A stretch of 64,000 nt of DNA from Elsinoe ampelina (GCA_010093995.1 ML992517.1:324677-388676); one strand, 5' to 3'. Counted from the first letter of the stretch, positions 1 to 28,541 are shown. The notes: generated from the letters alone by a model not told the origin. A program made the numbers and translations.

Positions 1-1329
1 TAATTAGCTAAGAGTAATATCGATTATAACGGACTACTATATATATAATAAGTAAAGCAATGTCATAGGTTAGAAGGACAATAGAACGCTATATTTTGCT
101 ATAATAGAGAATACTATCTAGTTTAAGGCTATTATCTTATCTAAGATATTACATAGTTTATCTCTTTATATCCTAATAAGGCAACGAGATTAAGGAAAGC
201 ATCTAGCCGAAGCAAGCATAAAGGAGAATAGTCCGGTAGTAGACTAAGTCGAACTAAAAAGTAGTAGGGTAATCTACGCTAAGCTATACCTACTACTAAA
301 CTCTAGAGTTTTAGTTTGTTTACTACGCTTTATCCTTCCTTACCTTTTAACTAAATCGCCCTTTAGAATTACTTATCTATCCTTCTACTATTAATCTATC
401 GAGTCTATTAGTATCTTTCGGCTAGGCTCCTAAGTATAAATATTAATTGTACTAACCTTGTTTCTCTAGCGGCTAATATCTAGACTATAGGATTAAGTAT
501 ATAGGCTTCTCTTATCTATTTAGGTGTTAAAGCATAGTCTTCTAATAGTCTCCCTAACTAGCTAGAGGCTTAAATTAGAAGCTCTCTACTATATATATAC
601 GGAGAAGAGTATAATTACGTTAGTAGCTAGCAAAAGCAATATAGGACCTAGTAGCCTAAATAGCTTAATAGATAGCAACTTCTAGAGGAAGATATTGTAC
701 TTGTTTAGTAGGAAGTAGGCTAATTACAATTAATAGCGAAGGAGAACGTAAGCTTAATTAGACAACTCTAGCGAAAGAATAATATACTTAGGAAGTATAT
801 TAGTAAAGCTTTTTACGCGTTTAGCGTCGCCTCTACGGACCTTACTAGTAGAGTGTTAAGGGGCTTATTCGGATTAAACAAGGGTATACGACGCTATACT
901 AATAGTGCTACTCTACTATTACTATATATAGTTACTAATAGCTAATTAACGCCTGCCCTCTATTACGATATAATTAGTAGAAGATAAGCTACTCTATCTA
1001 GCGTGTCTTATTTAGACACTCTAGACAGCGAGATAGTAAGCGATTAATGCTTTTAGCACTTAGAAGATATACTACTCGGTAAAGGGGGAACTACTAATGT
1101 AATTAATAAGGGAGCTACTATATAAATCGTACTACCTGTCTATATATATAATAGCTAGTTTCTATAGTCTTTCGAATTAGTGTATAATTGCTTAGTCTAA
1201 GTTTAATCTACAATTTCTCTCTATGTATTTCTACTCTAATTATTACTTAACCTAATAATAAATACTATATTTAGTTTAAGTATTTAGTCCAAGTAAGTTT
1301 AAGTAGCTTTCTTTTTTAGTTTAGCTTCT

Positions 1330-3700
1330 AGTAATTAGCACTCCGCGAGTTAGACCTAGCTATAAGTCTAATTTAATACCCTTACTAGTTAAGATTACTT
1401 TAGGGTATAGGTAGATATAACTAATTCTAATTAGAAGAAAGTCGCGTACTCTAAACACCTAACTAAGCTATTATCTAACTTAAACTAACGCTAAATTACT
1501 ATAACGCATATAAGATAACTATCTATCCCTCTTATAGTATATATTATTCCGGCCTGCCTTACTAACTCTCTTATACCTATATATCTCTTTATTAGAACTA
1601 TTATAAACTAAGATATCTTAGGCACGTCGGCGCCTATATAGCTTAGACTATAAGACTAATAAGTATTCCGAAGATAATAATTTAAGTTATTTCGACTAGG
1701 ATAAAGCAGAGTAAAGCTTTAGCATTAAGGGAGACTAAGCTAACTATATAGGCTATAAATACAATATCGAAGATAAAGGAGAAGGTATAAATTAGACATT
1801 GCTACTCTCGATCCGAGTTTAAGGGAGCTATAACCCGACAAGAATAGCCTAACGTTAGCCTCTACGCTAGTTAAGATAGTAAAGTAGAGGCAATAGAATA
1901 TACTAAACTAGTATCTCGACATTTTTGAGGTAGTATATAATAATCTACGTATAAGTATAGCTATTAGAGTAGATTATAATACAATGTTACTAATATTAGA
2001 CGATTAATAGCTACTCCTACGAATTATATAGTACTAGTGCTCGGTCCGTAACTAGCTACTAGTACTTTATCTATAGAGGACTATAGGCAAATACCCTTCT
2101 ATAGTTATAGCTAGTAAGGTAGGTTACGTAGCTAAAGCTAATTACTTATTAATATACATATAGCTCCGAGAGGCGCTCTACTATAGTTATAATAATATTA
2201 TACGAATAGTAAGTAAGATACTCTACTACGAATAGCTAGCTAAAGAGCTAGAGGATAGTAAGCTACTAAATTAGGCACGTAGGCTACTAGAGGAAAGAAA
2301 GTACTAATACAAGGACAGCGATTTAGTACGCGCTAGATATACTTATTAATTAATTACTTATATATAGTAGCGTAAACGCTTTAGGAGTTCTTTAATATAT
2401 AAAGCCTTCCGAGCAGCCTTTATTAGACATATAGGCTTAGCTATAATAGCTAGCACTTGCTATTACTTTAATAAACTAATACTCTTTTTTATTTTCTCTC
2501 TCCTAGTAACGATTTATATACTCTTAGTTAAGTAAGTAAATAGGGTCAAGTTCTACTTACCTAAGGGAATACTAGTATTTAAACATATAGAACCTTTAGA
2601 ACTTAATTATGTCTAACTAAGCATTTAGAATAACTTTCTAGCGTAGATTAGCCTAAGATAGGTTCTTATCCTTTGTTAGCTAAAACTTAGCTTCGCTAAG
2701 TGCGTTAAGAGGAATAGACTTACTATCGTAATAGTAGTATTAAATATATCTCTTTACGCTAATACTATAGAGAGACTATTAGATAGAGAAGATACAAGGG
2801 AAAGGTGTATATATACCTTCTCGTTTTAGTTCGGCCTACCTAACTTTAAACTAACTTATAGAGAAGTTAGGTATATAATAACAGGCCTAATAGCGGGGGT
2901 AATAGCTATTATATAGCACTAGTATAAAATGCTTCTACCAAGCACCTTTTAAGAGGTAAGCTTAATTCTTCTATTAGCTTCTTAAGTTTAATACTAATAG
3001 ATCGAGAAGAGCGTCTAATTAAGGCTAAATGCTCTATTATAGCGTATTAAGGTACTACTTAGTTCGCGTATAGGAGCGAAGTACTAAATCGCTCTATAGC
3101 AACTCCTATAACAGAAGTATAGCTAGCGTAGATACCTAACATAGACAGTAACCTTGTCGTGACTTTAACTACTACTAAACTAAGTTAGGTTGTAGTTAGT
3201 ATATACAAGGATTAATAGACTTAATAGCGACATTTACCCGGGCTACTTAATTATACACGTGCTATACTGTCCTAAGATAGACAACTTAATAGCGATTTAC
3301 TAGCGGTTAAGGCGTAGTAGAAGGATTTCTTAGGTACATAGACGTAGATAAACTTTTTGTCCTTTACACGTAAGAAGTTTAGAGGCCTACTACGTAAACT
3401 AGTCTTGTAGTACCGAATCGGCCTAAAGTATAGTAGTAGTATCTTAGACATTAAGGAGGATAGACATCCGCTAGATAGAGATACTTTTATAGAACTAAGG
3501 GATAAGGATATAGAATTATAAGAAGATAGTATATATATCGTTATTAAGAGTAGCGTTAGGTAGAACATAAAGTAATATATATATTCTAGCGACCTTGTAT
3601 AATTTTCTAGACGTAGTAGACGAATTATAAGGTCTATATAATATATAGACATATATAATATATACTACAAAGTAAGCTACGTAATAGAATATTTCTATAA
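1330..3700 (+). pseudogene. RIP-inactivated RecQ/SF2-like helicase ORF of a mobile element
   Basis: Stop-riddled translation keeps TIVIVV(L/P)NISL at ~2722 (motif Ia-like) and Y*RLRRSRR at 3298-3324, which de-RIPs to YQRxGRGGR (motif VI-like); boundaries approximate. Confidence 0.5.
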
Positions 3701-3999
3701 TTAATATTATTAAGCTTATAGAGTAGACACGAACTAATTACTTCGCGAACTAAGAAACGCTTAAACTAAGATAAGAGATATACGTAGTGCGCTATCTACT
3801 ATTAGGCCGTCTTTATTTGCTACGCATTAGAGGTTTTTAGATTTCTGCGGGGAAAAACTATATTACTTCTAAGCAGGACCTAGGGGTGACTAGGGAATTA
3901 CATTGAACTAAGTTAAACTAAGTTAGTTACTTAGAAGTAGTCTAATATAGCTCCCTAGCGTTAGGGATTTTGTAACGTAAGTATATAAGAGAACTTATA

Positions 4000-6635
4000 T
4001 ATTAACTAAGTACTATAGGAGACTAGCTTAAACTTCTCCTAATTTAGCTTAAAGTCTAACCTAAGAGCTAGTAGTTAATATAGTCTAGCTCGTCCTAACT
4101 TAGTAGCTAAACTAGAACTTAGTTTACGAGTTAAACTAGAACTAAACTAGTTCTAAACTAGAGTAGGAGCTCTACTAAGCTAGATTTCTAGATCTAAGCC
4201 TAGCTTAGATCTAGATCTTAGCCTTTTAATTAGCTATAGTAGCTTCTATTTAATAATAACTAGTAAAAGCTCTTCTTTATAAGTAACTTAGCTATACTTA
4301 TAATCGATAGTAGTCTTATTAGCCTTAAGCTAGCCGAGGCTAAGAATAATATTAAATTAGCTAATATCTATAATATAGAAGGTAGTAAGAGCGTTTAGCT
4401 TACTAGAAATAGTAGTAGTAAGAGAGATACTATATATAACTTATTCTATTAAAATACTATTATAAGCTTAAAGCTAAATAGAGCTAGCTAACGCTATAGA
4501 GTAGCTAAAACTCTTTAGCTTATTAAGGATATTATAATTAACTATAGCGCCGATAAGTATACTAGTATTAATAAAGACTTAGAGTATAATAGTATAAGAG
4601 TAGTTATAGAGATTATAGATTATAATAGGAGTTATAATAGTAAGGATATAATAGCTAATAACGCTATTTATTAACTATATACCTCCTCTAGATCTATCTT
4701 AAATTACTCTTATTCTACTAGAGAATAAGACTTATTCTTTAGCTACTTATTTCTCTAGCTAGATAGGCTAGTAGACTTATAATCTATTTTAAGGTCGAAC
4801 TAGAAGTAAACTAGATCTAGTTTATAAGCTAAACTAGTATTAACTTAGTTACTTAACTTAGCTAAGTAATTCTAGAGCTACTATATCTCCTTAATAGTAC
4901 TAATATATATAGAGTATATAGTAGTATAAGTAGCCTTCTCTAAGGCGCTAGCTATATACTTAGTAGAGATATAGCTAGGCTTACTATATATGTAATAGAT
5001 AAGTATCTAAGTTAGATAGAAAGGCTATAGAGCGCCTCTAGTAATAGAGTAGAAGGTAGCTAGAGTAATAGGTATAGAGGTAGAATAAGCTATATAAGTT
5101 AGTATAGTAGTAGTATAGCTTATAGCTAGTATAGAGCGTAAGGCTTAAGTATACTTAGTAATAAAGTTACTTTATTAAATGTTATAGTTAGTAGTATAGG
5201 CCTTTATAATAAAGGTAAAGAGGCTATTAGTATTAAAATTAATAAGGGTAGTACGTAACTTACTAAATATCTTCTAGTAAAGCTAGTAGAGCTATTTATT
5301 ATTAGTAATCTTAGCGCAAAGAGCGTACTTATTAAACTTACTAATAAAGAAGTTAAAGAGAGTATTACGCTAAAAGAGACTAGTAAACTAAGTATATACT
5401 ATAGCCTTATAGTTAGGGTTCTTAAAGCGTTAAGCTAGAAGAGTAAGAACCTTATTAACACTAATAATATTATTACTAGTAGTATCTATAATAAGAGTAT
5501 AGACTTCTCTAGTAAGGTAGAAGTATAAGTAGGTAAACTTAGTAGCCTTAGTTAGATAGTAGTCTAAGTTAGTATATATCTTATTCTTTATCTAGTACTT
5601 AAAGACCTTAAACTACTCTAGAGTACTACTACTAAATATAGTAGAGTCTAGTATCTTTTCTAATAAGGCTAGGCTATATAATAAGAGAGCTAGTATACTA
5701 CGTTCTATTTTAGCTCTTAGTTAGGCTAGTTCGGCTCTAAGTTTAGCATTATTAGTAATCTAATAGGTAGACTAAGTAGTAACGTTATTAGTAATACTAT
5801 TAGTAGTATCTAGTTTAAGTAGAGTATTATCTAACTAGTTATATAGATTAAGAGCGTTAGTATATATAGAGTTACGTATAGTAATCTATTTATTATAAGT
5901 AGATTTAATAAAAGTAAAAGCTTTACATAGAATAGTTATACTATCTATCTCTTATAGCCTCTTCTTAAGGTTAGTATTACTAAGGTAGATAAGGTTGTAA
6001 TAGGCTAACTAGACTAACTTATTATTATTAATAGAGAGTAGAGAGATCTTACTTACGTAGTAGTCGTCGCTATTACTAGAGTTAGAACGAGCTATACTTA
6101 GTAAGGTTAGTTATAGAAGAAATAGTATAAAAAGTTAATACGTAATAAAGGAGATATTAAAAATTCTAGCTAGTAGCCTACTTCCTTTAAGAGTTATCTA
6201 TAACCTAACTTATTACCTTCTTCTTATCTTTATAGTATTAACCTATATAGTAATAGCAAGGATCTATTATAGTATATATAGGAACTATAGTTATAATAGC
6301 TTCTTCTTTAATTCTTTAGTTCTTTATAGATAGTAGTTATTAGTAGTTACGCGAGTAGTAGAATAACTAGATAGTTTAATAGCTCTATTACTTAGTCGTA
6401 GTTATATAAAGTCTCGATATAGTAATCTTAACTAGTAAGATAAGAAGTTAATTATATCTATTTATTAAGATATTAAGACTTAGAAGAAGAAGAAGAAAGC
6501 TAGTATATAAAGTATATATAATATTAAGAGTAGAGTAGCTAGAAGTCTAGGCTATAATACTAAGATTATATAACTAATCTAAACTAGATCCTAACTAAAT
6601 CTAGTTCGTATCTAGTTTATATCTATCTTATATTA
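4000..6635 (-). mobile_element. RIP-degenerate copia-like LTR retrotransposon remnant with probable 5' LTR at 6430-6635
   Basis: Minus-strand relic motifs resembling LWHxRLGH (~5560-5600) and LRVFG..YV (LHIYS/GKPS/GY ~4970-5010); adjacent 206-bp segment recurs at 17765-17962. Confidence 0.45.
6430..6635. repeat. LTR-like dispersed repeat, copy 1
   Basis: aactagtaagataagaagttaattat...ctatcttatatta aligns along its length with 17765-17962 in direct orientation. Confidence 0.85.
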
Positions 6636-7626
6636 ATAGTAAGAATATTATAATTCTACTTCTATTTTATTAAAGTAGTAAGCTAACTACTATATATATA
6701 ATCTATAAGTAGTATTTACTCTCTAGGCTTATAACCTATTAAGTAGAAAGGCTCTTATAGAGTAGTATATTATATAGAACTAAGGTCTATACTTATTAAA
6801 CAATAGAAGACTTAATTATTAACTAAGGTTAGTTAGTTCTATCTACTAGAAATAATAGCTATATACTCTATAGCCTTAGTATTATATAACTTATAGTTAT
6901 ATAATTCTACTATAGTATCTATTAAGCTATTATTATAGACTAAGAAGTAAGTTACTAAACTTATTATTATTATTATAAAGATATTAAGAATATAGATAGT
7001 ATTATATTATTTATAATTCTATTAATAAACTATTCTTATATAAATATAATATTATACTATAGAAGCTATTATAGACTATAGATATATATACTATATATAT
7101 TACTATATCTTTAAAACTTCTATAGAAGCTAGAACTACTTTTAATATATATAACTCTATATAAGTAAAACTTAATATACTCTTAACTATAAATTAAACAT
7201 TCTCTAGTAGTAATTACTAATATTATAGTATAGAGTACTTCTTATTATTAAGTAGATATACTTAAGTCTTATTACTATTATTATATTAAAGTAGCTAGTC
7301 TAGTATATTATAAGTACTTAATTACTATATTAGTTATCTATAATACTATCTATATATTCTAATACCTCTTTATAATAATAGCTATAAGTTAGATAATCTA
7401 TATCTTAGCCTATAATAGTAGTATAGAGTAATAGATAGTATTCTTCTATAATTAATAACTATAATTAATCTACTATAGTAATTATATATAATAATTATTA
7501 ATAATTACTAATTATCTACTCTATACTCTTAGTAACTTACTAAGTAAACTATTCTAACTTATAATCTATCTCTAAACTACTATAGAGTAAACTATCTCTA
7601 CTTTACCTTTATATAGTTTACTAAGA

Positions 7627-7700
7627 GAGTAGAGTAGATTAGAGGTATAGTAAAGTAGGTTACTATAACTCTAATCTACTCTACTCTACTAACTACTCTA
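7627..7700. mobile_element. hAT-like terminus with subterminal hairpin
   Basis: Inverted arms gagtagagtagattagag (7627-7644) / ctctaatctactctactc (7669-7686); end ctactaactactcta is the reverse complement of tagagtagttagtag, the left TIR of the hAT at 32276. Confidence 0.55.
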
Positions 7701-8230
7701 CTTAACTCTCTAGTCTAAGGCGAAGTCTAGAGCTTTATTAAGAAGAATTAGTCTAAGATCTATAAGAAACTAAGTAGTAATATAGTAGTACTAGATTAAT
7801 ATCTTAGAATAAGCCTAATAAAGTATATAAGCTTAGAGATTAAGAAGAATATTAAGAACTATTTTAAGGACAAGGATTAGAAGAGTTTCGATAGAGAGTT
7901 AAGTATAGTATTAGATACGATTAAGAGGCTAGTAGAGTATAGGAAGCGAGATAGTAGAGTAATTAAGGAGTAGCTAGACGTAAGGGGATATAAGTAGATA
8001 GTAGTAAGTAGCATCTCTACGACAACGCAGCTAGGCTAAGTATTAATAATATTCTATTTAGAATAGCACATGCTCCTTGTGACGAGGTCATTCACCCTTG
8101 GCAAGGATAGAGCGGTCAATGAGACTGATTGGAATACTTGCTGTATAGTATACTAGAACCCCGTCCCTCATATCCGCAGTGATCTATGCGACCGCCAAGC
8201 TGACTCTGTGTTATCTCTGCCCTCCAGCCA

Positions 8231-9025
8231 TCACTTGTAAGCCCAAGCTAGATCGTCTTCCTTCTCAGCATCTCCACCTTCCTCGTTGCCACTCTGCGCC
8301 GGGCGTGCAGGACGTTTGTACTTCCCGCTCTTGTTCCTTCCCTTCCTACCCTTTCTCCCCTTCTTCTTCTGAGGCTCAGTCTTGCTGTCATCTTCGGCTT
8401 GGCGTTTGGGCTGGAAGATCTTACCACCGTCGTCCTTGTTGATCCCAGAGGTACTGTCTGCAGTGTCCTTCGCTTTCTGACGCTCTGGCTGGTCAGATGT
8501 GCTGCCCTCAGGCTGGCCGGGAATGCGACTGTCGGGCTGGTCGGATTTGCTGCTTTTGGGCTGGTCGGAGTCGTGACTGTCGATGCTGGGAGGGTCCGCT
8601 GCAATCGGACCAGAAGCCAGCTTTGCCTCTTCATCCTCCAGCTGCTTCTTGACCTTCTCCACCTCATGGGTAATCTTGGTGCAGAGATCGGCATCACCTG
8701 GCTCGGAGGAGGAGATCCGCATTCGAGCTGTAAGATGACCCAACAGAACCAGCATATCTCTGATGATTTGATTCTTGACGGTGACTTGCTCCTGCAGCTG
8801 GCGCCTGTATTTGGCTCGGTCCTCCTCGCGCGCATGCTGGGCGGACTGGCGCTCGATACCCCATTGCTGCATTGCCGCGCCGTGCTCTGCGTCGTACGTA
8901 CGTTTCAACGACAGAACTTCCTGCTTGTAAATACCCCTCATCAATGCACTATCTCGATTGTGCTGCTGTGCCTGTGTTGCCAGCCTCTCTTCGAGCGCGG
9001 CCAATTTCTGCTCCATTTCCTCCAT
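8231..9025 (-). CDS. Hypothetical 264-aa coiled-coil protein with acidic/basic low-complexity tail
   Basis: Open frame from MEEMEQKLAALEERL; heptad-rich N-half, KKKGRKGRKGRNK basic tail; upstream in-frame extension to 9262 looks non-coding. Confidence 0.6.
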   Translation of the reverse strand: MEEMEQKLAALEERLATQAQQHNRDSALMRGIYKQEVLSLKRTYDAEHGAAMQQWGIERQSAQHAREEDRAKYRRQLQEQVTVKNQIIRDMLVLLGHLTARMRISSSEPGDADLCTKITHEVEKVKKQLEDEEAKLASGPIAADPPSIDSHDSDQPKSSKSDQPDSRIPGQPEGSTSDQPERQKAKDTADSTSGINKDDGGKIFQPKRQAEDDSKTEPQKKKGRKGRKGRNKSGKYKRPARPAQSGNEEGGDAEKEDDLAWAYK

Positions 9026-10660
9026 GCTATCGGAATTTGGTGATGTGGGACGGCGTGAAAGGTAATACAAGCTTGGATAAAAGTGAAGCGAAGGGTAAAG
9101 GTGAATAAAGAGGGATGTGATGACAAAGTAAGAGAGTAGGGTGCTGCGGAGTGTACAGCAAAAGAAAAGCGCCACCCGATTGGTTGGAAGACAGACGGCT
9201 CGGTAAGTTGCAGGCCACAAAGTTGGGTCAAACGCCACATTAGACAAGCATCGTATGACCAAACGAACAGATCAGCATGAGCATAGCCTGCGAGGAGAAA
9301 ACAACAGTTCCGAAGCTCTCGCTGCAGGGGACATGTGCCGTCCAGCCTGGCAGGTATCATAATGCTTGCAGGCTGACGTATTCCGGCATGGAATGCCAGA
9401 CAGATGGTACGCTTGAGAGGCATAAACGCGGGCATAGTACTGCATTAGCGCTAAGCGCTCGTTTGGCGCGAGATTGGATCTTGCTGCGTTATTTGTCATC
9501 TACCCACATCACTGAGACCTTTGTAGTACCATCGGAGGCAGGAAGCCCGCGTAAAGCGCTAACAGAGCGAGGTCGGATGTTCTTCTTGTCCAAGCGTGTC
9601 GTTGCAGCGGTCTTGGACGACAAAACATGAAGTCGGAGATATACTGAAGCCGGTGAAGCTCACTGAGCTAGCCGCATTGGGAGAACGTCAGTGCTTCCCG
9701 CTCTCACCTCCATCCGCTGTCTGGGCAATCTTTGTCGCCAACATCGTTCTAGTTGTACCTCCAGCGAGATGATCCGTCGCTCGGTCACTGGTAGAGTGAC
9801 GCGGAACTCTACTCTATCATGCTGTTTTCATTTGTGCAGCGGAAGATGCTGTCTCCCACCCACTCACGAACATGCGTGGCACACAACACTCATGCACCTC
9901 CGATACCACCCATGACGTTCGACATGCATCTCGTTTGTCCTGTCTGAGCTGCAGGCCATCGCTCGTGCCTATTGGATGTCGTCTAGGAGCTGAAAGGCCC
10001 ATTGCCAGGTTCATGCATGGTTGTCTATCAACGTCACTCGCTTGAAAACGATTACTGACCGCCTCGATGCTAGGGCCAGAACGGGGTTACTGACTTGTAC
10101 GATCGTCGTAGGATAATCGGTCGTGAGAACGACATGGTCCCATTGATGTGTCTCTCTGAGGCTGAACATCTCCCATTAATGCCGTGAGAACTTGAGTCCT
10201 TCGTGTTGAGCTTCGATGATTCACTGCAAATAGAACAACTGTGAGTGGAGATTATCTTTTTGCCTCTGTTTCGCGGTCGCCGGTTTCACGATTGTCACTG
10301 GCTCCGCCACCGCGGTTCAAGGTGCTTAGCGCCAGTGCACGCTCCCGCCCGTCCTAGCTGGCGGAGCTTTCGTGAATGGGACATGTACTTCTACCCTTCA
10401 CCCGCCTCTCGAACGTGGTTTTCCATCGTCATCCGCTCCACGATCCCACACGCCTCGCTATCACACAAAGCCGTACAATCTCAAATCGTCTCCTGGCCAC
10501 CTTTCACCATCTCAGTGCTCTCAATTGACCTTTCCATCAGAGCTCTTAACTTATCGAGCTGTCTGACGACTGTCACACTGCTCCTCCACGGCGTTGCCAG
10601 CTTCTTCCAAGCAACGGCGACACTACCTCCACTCCGAAGCACAACTGCAGCACCGCCGCC

Positions 10661-13600
10661 ATGGCCGATCCGCCTCCTGACGATGGAAATCCATCCGGTC
10701 CGGGCGCCGCCGCCAATGGCGAAGAAGGTGGCGCAGGACTGAACGAAACCGTGCAGCTGCTGCAAAGAGTGCAGCAAGACATCGCCAAGTTGGGTCAGAG
10801 TGGCATTTTCCAGCTACTTTCACCACTGGCCACACCACCGCAACCTACCCCACCACAGCCCACACCGCAGCCGGTCACCCAACAAGACGAGTCATCCAAG
10901 AGGAGAATCTCATCCAAAAAAGACAAGACAGCCTCCACCGACACAAAGAAACAGAAGATAGGACAGAACCAGGGGCAGAGTCGTGAACAGCTGCAGGGCA
11001 GATCATACCTACCACATTCTTCGCCGACGCCCGGAGCTGACAAAGGCACTTCCTCATCCTCCGGTTCTGGTAGTACTGTCTCACTGCCAGAAAGAATGAA
11101 GAAGGAGATCAAGACACCGGTCCGTCCAAGGAAGCTCGCAGAACCCCGGACCCCACTCATGCGAAGTACCGCCAGCCTTCCTGTCAGAAGTGTGGGAGGT
11201 CGATACATCAAGCACCCCTCCCAGAACCCCGACGCAGTGTACACACAGCCATACACCCTCCGCCAGCCATTCCCTGAGGTCGAGGCTGATAGACTTACCC
11301 GCAAGAGCCCCTACCACATCGACCAGCCATTCGCCGACGTCGCTGATGGGGCAGGGTCTTCCTTTGAGCCTGGCCTGCAGCAGCAAGGGCAAGCCAGGCA
11401 GTTGGCCAGCGCTGAGCCTTATATGGAGCATGGGGCAGAGCGTATCTCACAGGCGCAGACAGTGCCAGCGGGACTCCAGCAGACTGAGCCAGCAGGACAA
11501 CCAGGCATCAGCTCCACGGTCAACGCTGCAGGGGTGCACTCGTCTTCGCACACGATGCTGCGAAGACTTGAGCCAATCGCTGAGCTTCCCACCTCCGTCG
11601 GCGCTTCACAAAGCGTACCAGGTTCGATGTACGGCCCTTCAGCGTTCAGACAACAGCCTCGATGGTCGTGGCAGCATGGCCGGTTTGTCACTCCTCAGCA
11701 GGGCCAAAGCTATTATCAGACTTCTGATCCCAGCATGAGATGGACTCCCACTCCAAGCATGCCCGTTGATCCCCCCTATCCGTACCGATACACAAGCTCG
11801 CCAGGACCACAGCAAGCTCCCGGATACTTCCCGGCTGCCCAGCAGGAAGATGTCTTTCAAGTGCATCCTCAGGACAACATTCAGCAGGCACCTGTCGCCA
11901 ATATGTCAGGTGACCAAGATCTTCACTCCCCGAGAGTTCAGTTCTCTACCGGACCTGACCTGGTCGATCCCTTGAATCTTGGTCGTGATTGGCAGGCTTC
12001 CGACATCCCGATGCTCACCGAAGAACAGCAACGCTTGTTGGATGGGATGACCCCGATACCATTTGACAGCTTCGACGACCACGAGACCGCTTATGGCCAA
12101 GCTGCCCAAATGGATGGGATCATGTCTTCAACAGAAGATCGTCCGGCCTCGCCTAAGAACTTTGCGCCTCCCTCACCTGGACATGACTCTGAGGACGACC
12201 TTTTCATGAAGCCTTACACTCCCGAACCTGACCAGGAGTGGCTGCCCGCCATCAAATCTGCGTCAGCCCCGCCGTCGCCTGGAGCGGCTTCTGATACAGA
12301 GGCGGCAGTCGCCCAACAGGCACCACGCCGAAGGGGTCGACCGAGATTGTCCACTGAGAACAAGTTACGTGTGAAGAAGTACGTGGAGGAAGAGGTGAAT
12401 GTCCCAAGACCTCCAACTCCTGTGGTTGGAGAGGACACCATCGATCAGGAGAAAGAGTGGCCGTACCTCAAGGCGAAGGCGGAGTACAACCTGTCTGATT
12501 TCACTAAGCCTTCCGAGAAGCAGTTCGCCAGATTGATCCTTCGCATCATCGATCGTGCCGAACGCGACTCAGATATGGCAAACAAGCAAGCGGCCGACGA
12601 TCCAGCGACAACTCGAGACCGATCTACCACCGACGTAGCTGCAACAACGGTGATCGATGAGAACACACCAGAGATCAAGCAAAAGGTGACAGCGGCGACT
12701 TTCCTGTACCCTGCATTCGATCATGGTACCCGGAAGACCCGGTGTATTGACTTGATCCGACTGTCGCCGGAGATCTGGCTCCATGACACGTCCATCGAAG
12801 CTTTGGTCAGCCCAATGGCACATCACCAGTCAGACGTCTATTTCATTACTTCGGGCGAGCTAGTCTGGATGTTACCAGACCCACTGCAATACGAAACCAC
12901 CGACGATTGGCGAGAAGGGCTGCTGAAGCAAGTCAAAGAGTACACGGATACTTGGCTGACGTCCACCGGCTTGATCAAAAGGCGACTGACCATCGGTCCC
13001 CTCGTCACCAAAGTTGTGGCAGTCTATAACCATGATGGGTCACATTGGACGACCATCGTCGTTGATCTGGTGAACGGTACTGTGACTGAACTGGATTCCC
13101 TCGATTCGAAGAGGAGAAAGAACAATGCGGAATTCGTTCTGTCGAATTTCGCAGAGTACATCGCCCTCCGAGCCGGCCGCCCGCGCGCTGCCCGATTCTG
13201 GCGAACTTCTTACGATTCTTCAAGCCGTCAGGCGAACTCCTGCGATTGCGGTGCTTTCACAGCACTTCATGCTCGAGAGATCATGCTTGGCCTTCCGATC
13301 AGCAAGCCCGGTCTGGAGCATCTCCCGCCTGGGATGGATGAAGGAGTGACAAGATTCGAAGACTTGAGCCGCGAAGCTAAGACACTGGCGAGGCACAACT
13401 ACGGCCTTCAAGTAAGATGGGATCTCCTACGCACCCAAGCTCGTCTAATCCTTGGCGACTTGCCGGACGAAGTCCTTGAGCTGGACAGGCAAGTTGGACC
13501 TCATACGACATTCACGATCCGCCGAACTGTGGACGAAGATAGTACAAGCGACGAGGAGGAAGTGGATGAGAAGCATTTCGACACCACAGAGCAGCTCTTG

Positions 13601-16600
13601 AAGGAAGCACCGCTGTCCAAGGGTGCGCTAGCCCAAGAAGCCTTTGGGTACCGTGCGCTGCTATTCGAGACCCTACGCGGTGCCGGACCACGTGGTATGA
13701 CGGTACGAAGGGTGACAGAGCAGGTGGCAGCGAAATTACGAGCATCTGGAGTCGAAGCTCGAAGTACGTTGAATGAAGACCTCGACTTCCTCTTGCGTCA
13801 GGCTCCATTGTACTTCGCCTTTGAGTTTCCCGATTCGCAAGACTCACAGAATGGATCGTCACCGCGCAGTGATGTAGATGAGCGCCACTGGTCTATTGTC
13901 GGCGGACCAGGAAGGGATCTGTCGACTGAATATTGTCGCCAACTTCTGCGACCCATCTCGCAGGATCCAGCGTGGTCCCTACCCGAGATCCAAGATGGGC
14001 GTCACTCGCGTACTCTTATTCTGGTCATTCAACGACATAGCGGAGCGATTTCCACAGGAGCTATTGATCGAGTCGAGACCGATGCTCAACGCCATGCTTT
14101 CGCCTTCTCGCAGTCCTTTAGCCAGAAGCCAAGTCTCCCAAAACCTTACACTGAGCATGAGGGTCTTGACAACCGGTATCTATCGATGTGTCTACCTCGG
14201 ATCCAAGGTACGACGGACCTGCGAGATATGATCAGATCCAGACCGTCCATTCTGAAAGCGATCACTCGGTACAACCAGAAGGCTAGAGATGGACAGTCAT
14301 TGGTCATCTTCCTCCACTCCGGTCTTGATGGAGGTAGTGTCAACAACGAATCGTACGCTACTATTCTGGAAGAATATCGAAATATCCACTTTCTCCAGGC
14401 AATCAGCATCTACTCCGAGCGGCCTGGTTCAAATGAAAGCCAAAACTTCCGCACGTTGACCGATTCTTTACTGAGCTACTTCCGACCCGCCTGCTTTCAC
14501 GCACCGCACAGCCTACAGCCCCATAATCACGTCCTTTGGGCTGTGTATGAAGTCGCTCTTCTGGCGCATCTTCATCCTCTCAATCATCCCAGCCAATCCC
14601 AGGATGGAGCATTTTCCATTGACGAAGTCACAATCGATGAGGCAGTACAAGCAGACATGATTCTTGCACACAAGCAACTATTGCTGTTGAACACGCTACA
14701 ATACTTTTGGAGACTTGATCGCCGGCTGCCAAAAGCGCAGAAGTATATGGACGACCAGACGGTACTTGGCAGGAGCGCAGGAACTTCCTACGGAGTATAC
14801 TCATCTGACAAAGGTCGAACCACCAACGACCTGAGCTTATGCTTGCTTCCTGGAGCAACTCACACCATGAGCAGATCTTGCCGTTACTGCGACGAGACCA
14901 CTACCATCAAAGATTGGCACCGCAGCTTCCACACACCACCAAATTATCTTGAGCTGCCTATCATTGGCTTTCATTGCGACCGGCCTACATGTGTAGACAA
15001 GGAACACCGTCTCAGAAGGATCTTGACTGTCCCAAATGGTCCGTCCCTCGGCAAATTGGGTATGCCACCTCCGGTGATGATGTTACGCGAACGACGACTG
15101 GCTTCTTTACGGGTGGATACACGTTCGAATGACTACGGTCCGATCTCGTCGCTATTTTCGAATCTCACCTTCCCGCTGGTCCCTCAGGTCCCAAGATGCA
15201 GGTATACTGTAGCCGGCACGGTGGAAGGGATGGACCTCATCATCGATCAAATCTGTCATGATGCTGACGCTCGATTCTTTGTGCCCGGTCTATTCTCCTC
15301 CGAGACCAATCTCACTGATCTGGAACATCTGATAGAGTTCTTCATCCATCACGGGCTGGACTTCACTATCAAGCAGTTCATCGCTGCAATGGACCTTCAT
15401 CGCCGTCGACACAAACGCCGGGAGAGAGATTCAAACGATGCAGGGAAGGATGACGAGAACCTCGACTCGGGGTCTGAAAGCGATGATGAAGACGGCGATG
15501 ATGACATGGGCAATCCACCAGCGGCGCGGACAGTCTTTCCTCTCAGTGCCGAGCGCGAAGAGCATTGCAAACAGATGATCTCGTACGGTTTCACATATCA
15601 ACAGATTAAGACATTGATACCCGACTGTCCCACAGTCGCACGACACGACTGGTTCAAGCGCCAGCTGGCCACGACGTTGACTTTTGTCGACGAGAACCTT
15701 TGGACGGACACCGATGAGCAGACTGCTAGGACGATGATAGTGGACAGGAAGGCTGACGATCGTACAGTCGCAGCTGCTCTGGGTCGTACACGGGTCAGTG
15801 TCAGTGAGAAGCGCCGCTCCTGGGGCCTGCGTCCCAACCGGCCGCCGCTCAAACATGGTGTGATTGCTGCTGCTGATCAGCATCGTGCGGATTATGGGCG
15901 CGTATGGGCAAAGTACACTGATGTGCAGAAGGACATCATCAGCTCTGAGTTCAAGCGTGGTACATCTGATGAGAAGATTGCAGAAATGCTTGGTCGGAAG
16001 GAAAGAAGCATAAAAGAGCAACGGGCTACAATGGGGCTTTTCCGTGTCCCCGGCGCTGCCAAAGATCATGGGTGGTCAAGTCCGGATCGAAAGGTGGTCA
16101 TCGACGGTTTCAAGAAGGGGCTGAAGGACCCAGAGATCGCTAAGCTTCTGTCAGGCCACGGAGTCCCTGACATCCGGAAGTTGATCTTTGAACATTTCCC
16201 GGAGGAAGAGGTCAGACGCAACGCCTCGACTCGTCCCTGGACGACCACTGAGGATGATTTGATCATCAAGCGGAAAGGAGATGGGAAAATGTGGAAAGAT
16301 ATTGCCGAAGAGCTCGGCCGTTCTGTAGGATCTTGCAAGAGCCACTGGCGGCAACTACGACGTACACAGGAGCAAAGGGATGCCAGAAACAGGGCCCGCG
16401 TCCGACCATCATCAAAGAGGGACACTGGCCCGGAAGATACAGCTGCTACGACCGCAGAAGATGTGATCGTGGTGAATGTGGCAGGCACATTGGCGGTGGC
16501 TAGCAGTGGCGATGGCGCTAGACCACCTCCTGTCGTCACTAGCAATGAGCAGACGACCACTTTGGCGACTGAGAGTCCGGTCACGTCGACCGACGCAGAC

Positions 16601-16987
16601 GGAAGGGAGCAGCCGAGCACAGGTGCAATTGTACCACCTCGGAGGATACAGCTGCTACAGCCGCAGCAGTGGCGACGGCGCAATGAGCAGACGACCACTT
16701 TGGCGACTGAGGGTCCGGTCACGTCGACCGACGCAGACGGAAGGGAGCAGCCGAGCACAGGTGCAATTGTACCACCTCGGAGGATACAGCTGCTACAGCC
16801 GCAGCAGTGGCAACGGCGCAATGAGCAGACGACCACTTTGGCGACTGAGAGTCCGGTTACGTCGACCGACGCAGACGGAAGGGATCAGCCGAGCACAGGT
16901 GCAATTGTACCACCTCGGAGGCGTTCGCTCAGGGGGCAGACGAGCTTGAGTCACGTCATGGAAGAAGGCAGCGATCAAGATGAATAG
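10661..16987 (+). CDS. 2108-aa multidomain protein: AT-hook, Ulp1/C48 peptidase, wHTH-like, resolvase-like, GATA-like Zn finger, Myb/SANT repeats
   Basis: Uninterrupted 6.3-kb ORF; RRRGRPR (12323-12346); WLHD..IE, HW (13043), ELDSL (13088), QANSCDCGAF (Cys 13247) = C48 triad; CRYC..W..CDRPTC (14879-14992); WTTTEDDLI..WKDIAEELGRSVGSCKSHW (16238-16348) plus similar upstream repeats. Confidence 0.85.
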   Translation: MADPPPDDGNPSGPGAAANGEEGGAGLNETVQLLQRVQQDIAKLGQSGIFQLLSPLATPPQPTPPQPTPQPVTQQDESSKRRISSKKDKTASTDTKKQKIGQNQGQSREQLQGRSYLPHSSPTPGADKGTSSSSGSGSTVSLPERMKKEIKTPVRPRKLAEPRTPLMRSTASLPVRSVGGRYIKHPSQNPDAVYTQPYTLRQPFPEVEADRLTRKSPYHIDQPFADVADGAGSSFEPGLQQQGQARQLASAEPYMEHGAERISQAQTVPAGLQQTEPAGQPGISSTVNAAGVHSSSHTMLRRLEPIAELPTSVGASQSVPGSMYGPSAFRQQPRWSWQHGRFVTPQQGQSYYQTSDPSMRWTPTPSMPVDPPYPYRYTSSPGPQQAPGYFPAAQQEDVFQVHPQDNIQQAPVANMSGDQDLHSPRVQFSTGPDLVDPLNLGRDWQASDIPMLTEEQQRLLDGMTPIPFDSFDDHETAYGQAAQMDGIMSSTEDRPASPKNFAPPSPGHDSEDDLFMKPYTPEPDQEWLPAIKSASAPPSPGAASDTEAAVAQQAPRRRGRPRLSTENKLRVKKYVEEEVNVPRPPTPVVGEDTIDQEKEWPYLKAKAEYNLSDFTKPSEKQFARLILRIIDRAERDSDMANKQAADDPATTRDRSTTDVAATTVIDENTPEIKQKVTAATFLYPAFDHGTRKTRCIDLIRLSPEIWLHDTSIEALVSPMAHHQSDVYFITSGELVWMLPDPLQYETTDDWREGLLKQVKEYTDTWLTSTGLIKRRLTIGPLVTKVVAVYNHDGSHWTTIVVDLVNGTVTELDSLDSKRRKNNAEFVLSNFAEYIALRAGRPRAARFWRTSYDSSSRQANSCDCGAFTALHAREIMLGLPISKPGLEHLPPGMDEGVTRFEDLSREAKTLARHNYGLQVRWDLLRTQARLILGDLPDEVLELDRQVGPHTTFTIRRTVDEDSTSDEEEVDEKHFDTTEQLLKEAPLSKGALAQEAFGYRALLFETLRGAGPRGMTVRRVTEQVAAKLRASGVEARSTLNEDLDFLLRQAPLYFAFEFPDSQDSQNGSSPRSDVDERHWSIVGGPGRDLSTEYCRQLLRPISQDPAWSLPEIQDGRHSRTLILVIQRHSGAISTGAIDRVETDAQRHAFAFSQSFSQKPSLPKPYTEHEGLDNRYLSMCLPRIQGTTDLRDMIRSRPSILKAITRYNQKARDGQSLVIFLHSGLDGGSVNNESYATILEEYRNIHFLQAISIYSERPGSNESQNFRTLTDSLLSYFRPACFHAPHSLQPHNHVLWAVYEVALLAHLHPLNHPSQSQDGAFSIDEVTIDEAVQADMILAHKQLLLLNTLQYFWRLDRRLPKAQKYMDDQTVLGRSAGTSYGVYSSDKGRTTNDLSLCLLPGATHTMSRSCRYCDETTTIKDWHRSFHTPPNYLELPIIGFHCDRPTCVDKEHRLRRILTVPNGPSLGKLGMPPPVMMLRERRLASLRVDTRSNDYGPISSLFSNLTFPLVPQVPRCRYTVAGTVEGMDLIIDQICHDADARFFVPGLFSSETNLTDLEHLIEFFIHHGLDFTIKQFIAAMDLHRRRHKRRERDSNDAGKDDENLDSGSESDDEDGDDDMGNPPAARTVFPLSAEREEHCKQMISYGFTYQQIKTLIPDCPTVARHDWFKRQLATTLTFVDENLWTDTDEQTARTMIVDRKADDRTVAAALGRTRVSVSEKRRSWGLRPNRPPLKHGVIAAADQHRADYGRVWAKYTDVQKDIISSEFKRGTSDEKIAEMLGRKERSIKEQRATMGLFRVPGAAKDHGWSSPDRKVVIDGFKKGLKDPEIAKLLSGHGVPDIRKLIFEHFPEEEVRRNASTRPWTTTEDDLIIKRKGDGKMWKDIAEELGRSVGSCKSHWRQLRRTQEQRDARNRARVRPSSKRDTGPEDTAATTAEDVIVVNVAGTLAVASSGDGARPPPVVTSNEQTTTLATESPVTSTDADGREQPSTGAIVPPRRIQLLQPQQWRRRNEQTTTLATEGPVTSTDADGREQPSTGAIVPPRRIQLLQPQQWQRRNEQTTTLATESPVTSTDADGRDQPSTGAIVPPRRRSLRGQTSLSHVMEEGSDQDE
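16542..16921 (+). repeat. In-frame tandem repeat, 138-bp (46-aa) unit, ~2.75 copies
   Basis: gcaatgagcagacgaccactttgg starts at 16542, 16680 and 16818. Confidence 0.95.
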
Positions 16988-17764
16988 TGAACTAGTCATT
17001 GGCGATGACGGAATCGAATCTGTAATATCAAGACTGCTTTTGCTCATACCATGGTTTTCCTGATTCTTCGCTCCAGCTAGTCATGTGACAAGTGATGGCC
17101 GTTGGTTTCGAGCTCTTGTGGCAGTGTTAGTAACCGGGATGCTTTGTCCTGTCATTCAAGACAAATATCATGAGCCTCATGGTCAGGCGACTGACGCTGG
17201 TTAGTCTGCGCATCAGGACCCGTCGCGCACAATAGATTCGAGTGTAGGCTACGAAAGTCACATGCAGCGTAGCGGGGCTGTCCAAATGCGAGGGTTCTAC
17301 TTGGCGGCGAATTTCAGACGACTGCTTCTGGCGCACGAGTGTCGTAGATGAGATTCAAGAGTGAGGCACAACTCATCAGGTGATATGTCTAAGTCTTCAG
17401 CGAGTCTCAAATCTATGCGCGATTGCTGGTAGTTCTGCACGGGCTCGAAACTATGACAGCTGACTTGAGTTACTCTTCGTAGTGGTGTCGCGAATATCTC
17501 TGCAGTACCCCGCCTTGCCTCGCAGAGCCGCACTGATATTCTCGCGGCCAAAATTACTGGGATTGCTTGGCGGACTTTTGGCTTGTTTACCACTCACCCA
17601 AAATTCGCCTCTAATACCCTCTGTAGTTATTATTTATCAAACCACGTGAATTGAAGCATTGATATCTATTAGTGTAGCCTTCTAAAGGTGTTTTTATAAT
17701 AGCTAAATCTTAAAATAGCTTAATTTTGCACTTACAAGTCTAAGATAAGGCTCTAGCTAATTAC

Positions 17765-17962
17765 AACTAGTAAGATAAGAAGTTAATTATGTCTATTTAT
17801 TAAGATATCGAGACTTAGAAAAGAAAGAAAGAAACTAAAGTACAAAGTATATATAATATTAAGAGTAGAGTACTAGCTAGAAGCCTAGGCTACAATATGA
17901 AGATTATATAACTAATCCAAACTAGGTCTAAACTAAATCTAGTTTAGATCTATCTCGTATTA
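17765..17962. repeat. LTR-like dispersed repeat, copy 2 (solo-LTR-like) inside a small RIP patch (~17620-18060)
   Basis: Direct-orientation match to 6430-6635 with transitions and small indels. Confidence 0.85.
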
Positions 17963-18350
17963 GAAAGCTAGCTATATAACTAGATATTAGTACTATAGCA
18001 CTAATAATAGTGTTACTAGCTCTAAATAGTAACTATGTAGTTAGTGTAATATACTGTCTATAGGGGAGCATAAATCACCTGATATATGCCCTTTATGCAA
18101 TTATCATACAAATTAGAACGAAAAGGCATCAGGCTCTCTAAACGAAATTCAAACGGTGCATGTTGATTGGGTGGGTCAAATGCCAAGGGTGGGAGTTGAC
18201 AATTGGGGGTGGCCTTCTCTCGTTCACATTACCTCACAAGTCAGGCTCACTTACCGAAATTCTGTCAAGTGCTCTGCCACCGTTGAACCTGACCTGTATC
18301 CTCAGACATAGCGAAACACACTCGAACCCCACCAGAACTGACTGCGCACC

Positions 18351-19223
<873 letters not shown>

Positions 19224-19596
19224 ACGCTGCAATCGTACGTTTCCAGTAAATGCTGCTTCTCGCCTTCTTCGGAGTTGGGAGTTCTACGCCAATCACCCTT
19301 TTCATGACTACGCGAATGACGCTGATGGAGATGATATCTGGTCAATGGAGGTAAACCCGGATGGTCAAGGTAGCCTTTGCAATCTGATTTTGACAACTAA
19401 TCTTCAAGTGCTTTACATCATTTGTTCACCCATCTTCATGCCCTGTACATCATGCCTCGCAGCTCCCACTCTTCTCCAATGTCTCGTCACATCTTGTACA
19501 TCATTCGTCGACCTCATCTACCGTCAACTCAACGCCTCGATTCTGCCATGAAACCCTATGTCAACATACATCCTCCAGATCATGGTCCGTGGAAGT

Positions 19597-20779
19597 CTAG
19601 AAGATTGCCTGTCCATTGACATGAGACGAAACACCGCCTATTAAACTGATCAGCTACATTCACCACACAAACCGAGATTCTTACCTGGCATATTCGCCGG
19701 CGCACTCGCAAAGAAGAAGAACCACCTATTATTCTTCTTACACGTCTCCGCCAGCTTCTCTAAATCCAGCATCTCCCCCAACGGCATCCCCCACATGGCG
19801 AGAATATACTCATGCAAGAAATACCCATGCTTACTCGGCCAGCACTCAAACGCAGGGGCATCTCCTCCTACCGCCGCGAAATAACAATCATGCAACCAAT
19901 CCAACACCTTCTCCTCCTGACTCACGCCCGAGAACGTATTCTTATTGTTCTCCCCTAACTCATGGTGTCTCTTCGCCAACGCATCCCGCTCATCAGGCTG
20001 CTTACTGTAATAGCTCTTCACCCACCCACTTCTCACGAACAACATATCCCCAATCTCGATGTCCCCTCCTTGACTCTTAGGCCGGATGTCAATCCCCTGG
20101 CTCTCCCCCACCTGCCGGAGTTCATCCCATGATATCTCCTCGTGGCCATACGCGTCGTACGCGCGCCCTTGCTTCTCCGCCCAGGAAGCAAAGTCGAGGA
20201 GGACGCCGCGGCCCGCGATGCCGTGGTTCGCCCAGTGGTGGATGCTGCATTTGTGGTTTGCTTTCTCACCCGTGATGTCTTCGCCTTTGGTGCCGTTGTA
20301 GAAGGTCTGGGTCGCGATGTGGGCGAAGTGGCGGAAGCCGTCCCATTGGGTGCCGCTTTGGGTGTTCATGGTGTAGAGGTCATCGTAGGCCACGCCGGGC
20401 ATGAGGGTTTTGATCTCATGCTTGAAGATCTCGCGCTCGAAGGCTGGGACGGAGGGGACGTTCAGGGGGAGGTTGACGGGGGCGATCTCGCCTGTGGAGA
20501 TGAGTTTGCTGGCTGCGGCGACGCGGGTGGGGGTGAGGAGGTTGAGACGGCCGAGCTGGGAGGGTTAGGAGGGAAACAGGGGGAGGGGCGGGGGAGACGC
20601 ACGCCGTCTTCAGATCCCCAGAACCAGGCGGCATCTTTGGGAGCTCCGGAGATGGAGGGGAGATCTTTACGGGAGGGGAAGGAGGTGTCGTCTGGGTTCC
20701 AGGTTGGTGCCATGCTGGGTCTTGATTCAAGCTGGTCGGTGATCAGATGGGTTCTTTGCTGGGCTCTGAAGTTGGCCAT
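19597..20779 (-). CDS. Putative cyclase / kynurenine formamidase-like metal-dependent hydrolase
   Basis: NTQSGTQWDGFRHF, GIAGRGVLLD, GDMLFVRSG, LHEYILAMWGMPLGEMLDLEKL; introns near 20550-20601 and 19640-19683; start could be 20713 or 20779. Confidence 0.85.
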
Positions 20780-27098: not shown

Positions 27099-28541
27099 AT
27101 GGAGCAGGTTTTGGCCAGGAACCCCGCCACCGTCCGAGAACGACCTCGTGAACGCCGCAACCTACGACGACCGGCTTGCGAGGCATGCAAGAAGAGCAAG
27201 GTATGTGTGACCCCCCTCAATACAAATGTACGTACTGCAGTCCGCTGACTACAGTGCTCTTAGCTTCGTTGTTTGGGCCCACAGTCACAGTGCGACAGAT
27301 GCTTGTCCCGCTCCATCCCGTGCATTTTCCCAGAGCCAATGCGAGCGAGATCTGGTCAAAACACGAATCGGAGCGCTAATGGGATGACAAGTGTTCAATC
27401 GGACTCGATAGTGAGCACGACCACATTCACTTCTCCATCCCAGACGCTGCAAACGCCAGTCGACACCGATTTCATACCGTCCAACTCTCTGCTCTCTTCT
27501 GACGACAATCCGAATGGTTTGAATGGAACCTTTGATTGTTTGTGACGTCTGATTTGTCCATTCCGAGATAATAGACTGACCTACATTAGTAGCATTTACG
27601 GATGAAGAGATGCGTTCTTTGACGGGCCAAGTATTCCCCGAAGCCGATCAAGACTGTACGTCGTTCAACGTCAGACAAAGGTTAGTGGCTGACGTGAGAT
27701 AGTTCTTGATGGTTTTGAGACCCAGGCTTTGGCCGATACGCCCATGGAATGGTTCAGTTCAGACAACCGCTCGCTCATGGACAGCACAGCATCGCACGAG
27801 TACCCGGTCCCAGACGTTTTCCTTCAGCAAAAGCAACGGCCCGGTCCTACTGCGCTGGAACAGCCATCGTTCGCTACTTCGGACGGCAACAGATCAAGCA
27901 TTTCTCAAGCCACAATAAGACATGATTCTGTGGGCTGCGACTGTATTACAAGTGCTCTTGGTGTCGTGCAACAGCTTGACGACGACCATTTCAAACTGTC
28001 CTCTCTTTCACTGGACCAAGTCATACAACTGCAAAAATGGATTCAAAAGTCAGCTGGAGCCTCTCTTAAGTGCGAATCGTGCAAGGATGACTCGAAAGTC
28101 CTCACCGTCGTCGTCATCGTCTGTGAGCGATTGACCGAGATGTTCGAGTGTATCCACCGCCGCATCGATCAAGCGACCCAAGAGACCCTCGGTGGCGATC
28201 CCAATCTTCCCAGGCTGGTCTCCATGTCGGATGAGCAGCTGTATCCTTCTTTGGGGACGAAAGAGGGATGCGATGTCCGCTGCAATACTGCTTTGTTCTC
28301 CATGGAGTTCCAAAAGATGTACTCGGGAGAGGAGCAGGTCCATATGATCAAAGTCCTGCTGCGGCTACAAATGAGGAACCTTCAGGCTCATCTGGTCACG
28401 TTGACGACAATCTACGACTCGAAAGCCAATGAAGCACGCCGACACAAGATATCCTCCCTGACAGCCCGTCTTTCGAGAGCTGCCTCTGCTATCGACAACT
28501 CGTTACAAAACTTGTTAGAGCATCAAAGAAATGAACGATAG
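27099..28541 (+). CDS. Zn(II)2Cys6 transcription factor, probable cluster regulator
   Basis: ACEACKKSK|intron|LRCLGPQSQCDRCLSRSIPC binuclear cluster; further introns ~27540-27700; C-terminal CDC..C..C region. Confidence 0.85.

Follow-up and report, generated by a model that had tools for sequence, protein, structure and literature searches.

A giant Elsinoe ampelina protein joining an Ulp1-type protease to DNA-binding modules and an alpha/beta domain with a faint likeness to serine recombinases

A 64,000-nucleotide (nt) stretch of the Elsinoe ampelina genome (GCA_010093995.1 ML992517.1:324677-388676; the whole stretch is called the window below) contains a single open reading frame (ORF) for a protein of 2108 amino acids (aa), in which an Ulp1-type cysteine protease of family C48 is embedded among putative DNA-binding modules. 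The new element is the combination, since a protease of known kind is found here in an undescribed and rare fungal architecture. We interpret the gene as a transcribed host gene for a DNA-tethered isopeptidase of the deSUMOylase type, with a family possibly derived from a mobile element, and give this interpretation a probability of about one half. An AT-hook, a winged helix, a zinc module with four cysteines (C4) and a Myb-like array would tether the Ulp1/SENP-type isopeptidase to DNA or chromatin. By these modules the protease would be placed at particular DNA sites, where it would strip SUMO (small ubiquitin-like modifier), or a related ubiquitin-like modifier, off chromatin-bound proteins. 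The remaining alpha/beta domain would either be related, in a non-canonical way, to the catalytic domain of serine recombinases or just look similar to it, and would serve DNA binding or oligomerisation and not strand exchange. The family probably began as a mobile-element fusion of protease and recombinase that is now retained as a host gene.

The open frame, its transcription and its protease domain

The features of the gene are as follows (HTH, helix-turn-helix).

10661..16987, + strand: coding sequence, 2108 codons plus stop, no intron detected (ORF and colinear RNA-like contigs)
10661..12730, + strand: low-complexity N-terminal region, probably disordered, aa 1-690 (composition)
12329..12346, + strand: AT-hook-like RRGRPR, aa 557-562 (pattern only)
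12740..13315, + strand: Ulp1/C48 cysteine protease, aa ~694-885, with His795, Asp812, Gln857 and Cys863 (Pfam, PDB alignment)
13610..13942, + strand: winged-helix domain, aa ~984-1094 (structural match)
14006..14785, + strand: conserved alpha/beta domain and long helix, aa ~1116-1375 (nearest fold, the serine-recombinase catalytic domain with helix E)
14873..15004, + strand: C4 zinc-binding motif R-x-C-x2-C-x8-W-x19-C-D-x3-C-x3-E, with Cys1407, Cys1410, Cys1439 and Cys1444 (family conservation)
15200..15460, + strand: helical module with a C...HD...F...H motif, aa ~1514-1600 (also in relatives)
15428..15511, + strand: acidic tract, aa ~1590-1617 (direct sequence reading)
15536..16375, + strand: Myb/HTH-like repeat array, aa 1626-1905 (repeat 5 certain, 3-4 supported, 1-2 pattern only)
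16542..16921, + strand: tandem repeat of 138 nt (46 aa) that keeps the frame, 97% matching over 2.8 copies (repeat search)

From stop to stop the frame spans 10550..16987 (+), and the chance of 2145 stop-free codons at the base composition of the region is ~8e-38. An earlier note, made from the DNA alone, had proposed this single giant frame as well as most of the modules. The frame is real, and the motif coordinates given in that note were all found to be correct.

At least part of the stretch is present in 12 public runs, and four runs were compared over 7000-20000. Contigs from X3, X7 and X6, which belong to three studies, contain GT..AG joints in the neighbouring Rab gene and cover neither the AT-rich DNA nor 16982-17849. 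Over 11501-16571, one X3 contig of 5071 nt runs colinear with the window and shows neither a difference nor a joint, which indicates that the frame is transcribed and free of introns between these positions. A second X3 contig covers 10721-11390, and X7 and X6 each contribute four smaller pieces of the ORF; 10395-10720 and parts beyond 16981 are left uncovered by the RNA-like contigs.

The assignment of the protease domain is based on several lines of evidence. Family PF02902 was matched with 33.6 bits in the full protein and 37.7 bits in the excised part (cut-off 20.7), and His795, Asp812, Gln857 and Cys863 are in register with the catalytic residues of 1euv (yeast Ulp1) and 6dg4. The intact His-Asp-Cys triad and oxyanion glutamine described in the earlier note are thereby confirmed. 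The corresponding motifs are HW at aa 795, ELDS at aa 810 and QANSCDCG at aa 857. All matches to PDB sequences at E <= 1 (13/13) are to Ulp1 or SENP1/2/3/5, the best being 6dg4 (E 4e-4). The catalytic pattern recurs in 6/17 homologue rows and, by eye, in P0013, and the Ulp1 catalytic motifs are kept in relatives at 22-31% identity.

Compared with the Ulp1/SENP proteases (MEROPS C48), the domain scores above the C48 cut-off, and the triad, the oxyanion Gln and an N-terminal W-L-x-D align residue for residue. It differs from them in its weak overall sequence similarity and in its location in the middle of a protein of 2108 aa, between DNA-binding modules and the alpha/beta domain. To our knowledge, no canonical Ulp1 or Ulp2 carries a winged helix, a zinc module or Myb repeats.

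The locus is also found in the DNA run X4 (organism B), together with both flanks (7963-9278, 16950-17355) and at the same contig depth for gene and flanks. Divergence in X4 amounts to 8 differences in 1086 positions for the Ulp1 and winged-helix region (12708-13793), 56 in 1526 from the core to the Myb repeats (14364-15892), 38 in 521 in the N-terminal region (11761-12281), and 91 differences plus 20 gaps in 822 upstream (9578-10399). This pattern is suggestive of a vertically inherited host gene with constrained folded parts. By hand count, the 30 listed differences in 11797-12161 fall 12/7/11 on codon positions 1/2/3, which suggests that the N-terminal region is under weak constraint.

A rare family and its DNA-binding modules

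To define relatives, an exhaustive phmmer search was carried out with aa 700-1899 against 1.84 billion representative proteins, yielding 63 proteins at E <= 1e-3, of which 16 reached E <= 1e-10 and 3 reached E <= 1e-30. Of the 63, 16 (P0002-P0015, P0017 and P0050) match the central part (aa ~970-1600), 11 the Ulp1 part only, and 36 the Myb part only (aa ~1733-1899). None of the 16 core representatives has a Pfam family for the central part. C48 was detected at E <= 0.01 in 5/16 of them and at E <= 10 in 7/18 rows of the family alignment; P0006, P0007, P0012 and P0015 begin with a residue other than Met, within the final part of the Ulp1 domain, and are apparently truncated. The named members come from Elsinoe ampelina, Aureobasidium melanogenum and A. 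pullulans, all Dothideomycetes, and every one is annotated as hypothetical or uncharacterized; for one cluster member from A. melanogenum, UniRef gives in addition 'Ubiquitin-like protease family profile domain-containing protein'.

By sequence comparison, the core composed of Ulp1, winged helix, alpha/beta domain and zinc module is a rare family, with 16 clusters among the 1.84 billion representatives, and the membership pattern indicates that this is the ancestral architecture. Pfam Myb was found at E <= 0.01 in 0/16 core representatives, which makes the Myb array an addition in the lineage of the window protein, as are the long N-terminus with the AT-hook and the tandem repeat. The statement in the earlier note that no protein of this architecture had been described thus holds for the full combination, which was not seen among the 16 clusters, whereas the core recurs in other fungi. 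In the open-access literature of PubMed Central and bioRxiv, we found no description of a fusion of Ulp1 with a serine-recombinase-like domain or of this fungal family.

Other searches added little. A word-indexed protein search returned nothing with the protein (7276 candidates) or the family alignment (8000), probably because it was swamped by low-complexity words. With a 9-row family alignment, one 2-kb metagenome contig without context was found, and nothing in viral contigs. As a separate observation, the N-termini of P0004, P0011, P0013 and P0014 share C-P-x-C-x3-P-x-G-R-C-x-K-H-K-K, a motif that looks like a small zinc knuckle with a basic stretch and that the window protein lacks.

The N-terminal region preceding the protease is of low complexity, with P, S, G, Q, T and A making up 0.52 of residues 1-690, in agreement with the predicted disorder; Pfam found no family in it apart from one far-sub-threshold match (E 0.041). 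The AT-hook proposed earlier corresponds to RRGRPR at aa 557. Downstream of the protease, the winged helix was verified as a three-helix bundle with a beta wing that matches solved winged helices, with YRALLFETL at aa 997 (nt 13649) in this region.

The zinc module had been described as a GATA-like finger, of which the conserved C4 motif stands and the GATA character does not. The four cysteines are kept in 15, 13, 15 and 14 of the 15 family rows that have the region (SCRYCDE is at aa 1406, nt 14876), and the predicted model shows two short strands and a helix. A GATA-type finger was rejected because the spacing is C-x2-C-x28-C-x4-C, unlike the C-x2-C-x17/18-C-x2-C of GATA fingers. Pfam GATA gave no match at E <= 1 in the window protein and none at E <= 10 in the 18 family rows.

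The helical module that follows carries the pattern C...(L/I)-x-D-x3-H-D-x2-G-x-F...H once each in the window protein (P0001, aa ~1490-1600), P0002 and P0004. The module occurs as 3-4 repeats in P0012 and P0015 and is present in P0007; no Pfam family matches it, and with it the family may have a second unit for binding metal or DNA. The acidic tract, also listed in the earlier note, can be read directly from the sequence.

For the C-terminal part, four to five Myb/HTH repeats had been claimed. Repeats starting with W are found at aa 1681, 1749, 1805 and 1860. Like known Myb/SANT arrays, the last repeat passes PF00249 (aa 1858-1899; 29 bits in the full protein, 34.6 bits excised, cut-off 24.4) and aa 1747-1899 match proteins with several Myb/HTH repeats. 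Of the 12 Myb-only matches that were scanned, ten have PF00249 or PF13921; in P0026 and P0039, HTH families of other kinds were found. Together, the Pfam match and this homology support three repeats. On the other hand, repeats 1-4 differ from known arrays in being below Pfam detection when scanned singly. An hhalign self-comparison of the region, made with a single sequence, found no repeats and was uninformative. Near the C-terminus, two copies of the 138-nt repeat are 99% identical, which suggests recent expansion, and one X3 contig differs at 16712, 16720 and 16747 within the repeat, so that copy number or sequence may vary between isolates.

The alpha/beta domain and its nearest fold

The earlier note called the domain downstream of the winged helix resolvase-like. 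A model of aa 1105-1460, predicted from the 18-row alignment, has a mean local confidence (pLDDT) of 77.2 and a predicted template-modelling score (pTM) of 0.81. Its order is strand, helix, strand, helices, strand, helix, strand, helix, strand, helix, followed by a 30-residue helix and the zinc module. When compared with 48,161 PDB representatives using VIA-align, serine recombinases occupied ranks 1-4 and 12 of the best 50 rows, which represent a single fold and are not independent of each other. Four of these rows are given here with their values (rmsd, root-mean-square deviation).

9dxd_A, serine integrase: 6.1; 152 (rmsd 4.8; chain 3-160)
5c31, Sin: 5.1; 124 of 126
3bvp, TP901-1: 5.1; 121 of 130
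4bqq, phiC31: 4.8; 125

A second structural list is headed by PhiC31 integrase and IS607-like TnpA, and in BFVD a pithovirus resolvase has the highest listed probability (0.75, E 0.029). The likeness is faint by other measures. Foldseek gave no match at E <= 1e-3 in PDB or BFVD. Pfam Resolvase (PF00239) was found at E <= 10 in 0/18 family rows, a search of PDB sequences with the family profile gave 0 matches, and an hhalign comparison with 22 resolvase domains, taken from E. coli K-12 and five plasmids, gave P 0.27-0.40 and a probability of <=0.2%; a set of close Pin relatives (84-98% identity) was left out of this comparison.

Strand 1 leads straight into Arg1125-x-Ser1127 (within VIQRHSGA, aa 1122, nt 14024), with Arg kept in 17/18 rows and Ser in 16/18 (one row has a gap), and a non-significant hhalign path pairs these residues with the Arg-x-Ser of resolvases. 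In resolvases, strand 3 is followed by a D-R-x-x-R motif (Asp67, Arg68 and Arg71 in gamma-delta). The loop after strand 3 in the window protein is GLDGGSVNNES (aa 1221-1231), in the family G-L-D-G-G-S-V-N-N-(D/E)-S; with the register taken from secondary structure and not from superposition, its Asp is kept in 15/18 rows and Arg is at neither position of the motif. Asn1228 (18 of 18 rows), Asn1229 (17), Cys1278 (17) and His1290 (17) are conserved, and Ser1231 and Trp1293 are near-invariant as well. We know of no counterparts of these six residues in resolvases.

Large serine integrases have a long helix and then a zinc module after the catalytic domain. By its predicted model and by position in the sequence, the window protein resembles the serine recombinases (gamma-delta/Tn3 resolvase, Sin, IS607 TnpA, phiC31, TP901-1, Bxb1) in its best fold match, which includes the long helix, in the Arg-x-Ser directly after strand 1, and in the zinc module downstream. 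It differs from them by the lack of sequence or profile similarity and of the D-R-x-x-R arginines, by an extra strand-helix-strand insert that carries Cys1278, His1290 and Trp1293, by its eukaryotic host, and by a winged helix that precedes the domain instead of a C-terminal HTH or recombinase domain. Judged from the predicted model, the serine-recombinase catalytic domain appears to be the closest known fold, with a weak match. Homology of the domain to serine recombinases is a tentative assignment, which we rate a little below even, and canonical recombinase chemistry is unlikely.

A Toprim fold was also considered and rejected, because the conserved Glu after strand 1 and the D-x-D after strand 3 of Toprim domains are absent; topoisomerase chains also rank below recombinases in both structural lists.

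Genomic setting and the origin of the gene

The gene opens a GC-normal island of 22 kb (8-30 kb, GC 0.49-0.56) that is sandwiched by AT-rich blocks at 1-8000 and 30-43 kb (GC 0.15-0.37). These blocks carry the mark of repeat-induced point mutation (RIP), with TpA/ApT of 1.95 and 1.85 and (CpA+TpG)/(ApC+GpT) of 0.14 and 0.29, respectively, and both were presumably transposons originally. The ORF has no such signature (0.49 and 1.25), as the earlier note had noticed, and resembles the neighbouring genes. The downstream neighbours are of ordinary fungal kinds and comprise a Rab GTPase, a putative cyclase, a HOOK protein and a P450, together with a weak AflR-like match.

Upstream of the start codon there is one further transcribed feature.

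10020..10073, + strand: 54-nt GT..AG intron in the upstream transcribed stretch (an X3 contig joins 10018 to 10073)

The spliced stretch to which it belongs (9748-10660) may be a long regulatory 5' leader of the gene or a separate transcript. If the upstream contig belongs to the ORF, the leader is at least 859 nt long and contains 16 upstream ATGs; the frame of 119 codons that starts at one of these (10383-10742) extends across the main start codon.

Three observations concern the neighbours. In the Rab gene (+), the three RNA-like runs join 18371 to 18493 with 12 extra letters that are found at 18428-18439, indicating a 12-nt micro-exon between two short introns (18372-18492). The AflR-like match (27693-28541, +; 22.3 bits against a cut-off of 24) is adjoined by a P450 fragment (29071-29535, -), and this pair at the edge of the right AT-rich block may be what is left of a secondary-metabolite cluster, or its margin. 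A minus-strand frame of 346 codons (8231-9271; 264 aa from the first ATG), arranged head to head with the giant gene, encodes a charged, Glu/Lys/Gln-rich product without Pfam family; 8302-8735 of this frame is covered by an RNA-like X3 contig.

Two studies describe Ulp1 domains as recurrent add-ons of Ginger1, Mutator and Crypton transposases, with C48 joined to or encoded beside the recombinase in Ginger1 (a DDE integrase), Mutator or Mutator-like elements (MULE), CryptonF-2_PS and CryptonS (both with a tyrosine recombinase) (PMC2836005, PMC3212892). The window protein likewise has a C48 protease joined to a recombinase-like domain and DNA-binding modules. This parallel suggests a transposon origin, which by analogy is plausible for the family. 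The partner differs from those described in these studies, being neither a DDE nor a tyrosine recombinase and having the serine recombinases as nearest fold. Unlike these elements, the gene shows no terminal repeats, target duplications or multiple copies in the window and behaves like a host gene, and no sign of present mobility was seen within the window.

A bolder version of this idea is that Ulp1 is joined in the core to a eukaryotic branch of the serine recombinases, so that the core would be either the recombinase of an as yet unrecognised class of mobile elements in fungi or a domesticated descendant of such a recombinase. In that case its active site would have been rebuilt, with Arg-x-Ser kept and the two arginines replaced by the invariant Asn-Asn, Cys and His. 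We regard this as unlikely.

That the protein is at present the transposase or site-specific recombinase of an undescribed eukaryotic mobile element appears quite improbable. The alpha/beta domain would then be a divergent but working serine recombinase whose nucleophile is Ser1127, the ends of the element would be recognised by the winged helix, zinc module and Myb repeats, and Ulp1 would be accessory, as in Ginger1, MULE and Crypton. The recombinase-led structural lists, the conserved Arg-x-Ser, the helix and zinc layout and the precedent of Ulp1 as a transposase add-on fit this explanation, as do an intronless coding sequence of 6.3 kb at the edge of a RIP-degraded region and several Aureobasidium copies on short contigs of 4-7 kb. 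It is opposed by the negative Foldseek, Pfam, PDB-profile and hhalign comparisons and by the absence of both D-R-x-x-R arginines in the register deduced from secondary structure. The locus itself also argues against it, and within the window lends no support to the idea in the earlier note of a protein that helps to move its own element: no inverted or terminal repeats bracketing the gene were found in 7000-19000, tblastn of the protein against the 64-kb window revealed no second or degraded copy, the neighbours are ordinary, and the locus is conserved in X4.

A further explanation, to which we likewise assign a low probability, is that the alpha/beta domain is caspase-like (clan CD) or another hydrolase, active or degenerate, so that the protein would be a chromatin-tethered double protease or hydrolase, or a scaffold. 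Protein-language-model features lead to Peptidase_C14 clusters, the score being 0.79 when the whole core is used and 0.90 with only its alpha/beta part (132/256 features), and the near-invariant Ser, Gly, Asn, Cys and His would suit a hydrolase. The conserved residues resemble the Ser, Gly, Asn and His blocks of SGNH hydrolases. However, the language-model scores are at or below the level of a lead, with 132 shared features against the 170 typical of the same family, and no Peptidase_C14 or hydrolase family was found by Pfam at E <= 10 in the family rows. In both structural lists caspase-like chains are outranked by serine recombinases, no SGNH chain is among the best 50 structural rows, and the conserved Cys precedes the His, opposite to the order in caspases.

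A decaying or non-functional relic without cellular function, for instance a transposon gene that has died or an artefact of read-through, is very improbable: the exact protein is absent from a collection of 15 billion proteins, expression looks low, the possible leader is long (~859 nt) with its 16 upstream ATGs and the N-terminal third evolves almost neutrally, but the length of the stop-free frame, the intact and family-conserved catalytic and structural motifs, transcription in three runs from three studies, the few differences in folded domains of the diverged X4 and the lack of RIP next to heavily RIP-mutated DNA all contradict decay.

The DNA-tethered deSUMOylase proposed in the earlier note therefore remains the best-supported reading, given the intact catalytic residues and the several DNA-binding modules, with SUMO as the predicted substrate. 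Several points weigh against it. The role in SUMO removal is a prediction from sequence, and the choice of SUMO over other modifiers follows solely from which solved relatives match, at weak E-values (best 4e-4). The AT-hook and Myb repeats 1-2 were called by pattern only. Five core members with a Met start (P0003, P0005, P0009, P0010 and P0014) have no Ulp1 domain, so the protease is not obligatory to the family. The conserved polar residues of the alpha/beta domain suggest some active site, for which a scaffold role offers no explanation. As for the gene, the RNA nature of X3, X7 and X6 was deduced from the joints only, no run being recorded as RNA, and contig depth in X3, a poor gauge of expression, is ~15 for the ORF compared with ~925 for the Rab gene. 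Finally, X4 may be a mixture of strains (44 pieces range from >=99% to <90% alike), which leaves the divergence gradient suggestive of selection.

SUMO proteases are usually directed through protein-protein contacts. An Ulp1 enzyme fixed to four kinds of DNA-binding module could clear defined DNA sites of SUMO marks, for instance along the RIP-degraded heterochromatin on whose border the gene is located. Neither a Pfam model nor an informative name is available for the core in the database records examined, and defining it adds an uncharacterised domain. If the alpha/beta domain derives from a recombinase, it would be a rare eukaryotic use of the fold and possibly a new transposon class; if not, a conserved putative active site of unknown chemistry is attached to the protease. 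Should the core indeed be an offshoot of the serine recombinases, Ulp1, already known as a partner of DDE and tyrosine-recombinase transposons, would be paired with the third great class of recombinases as well, and fungi would own a native serine-recombinase-like enzyme that acts on chromatin.

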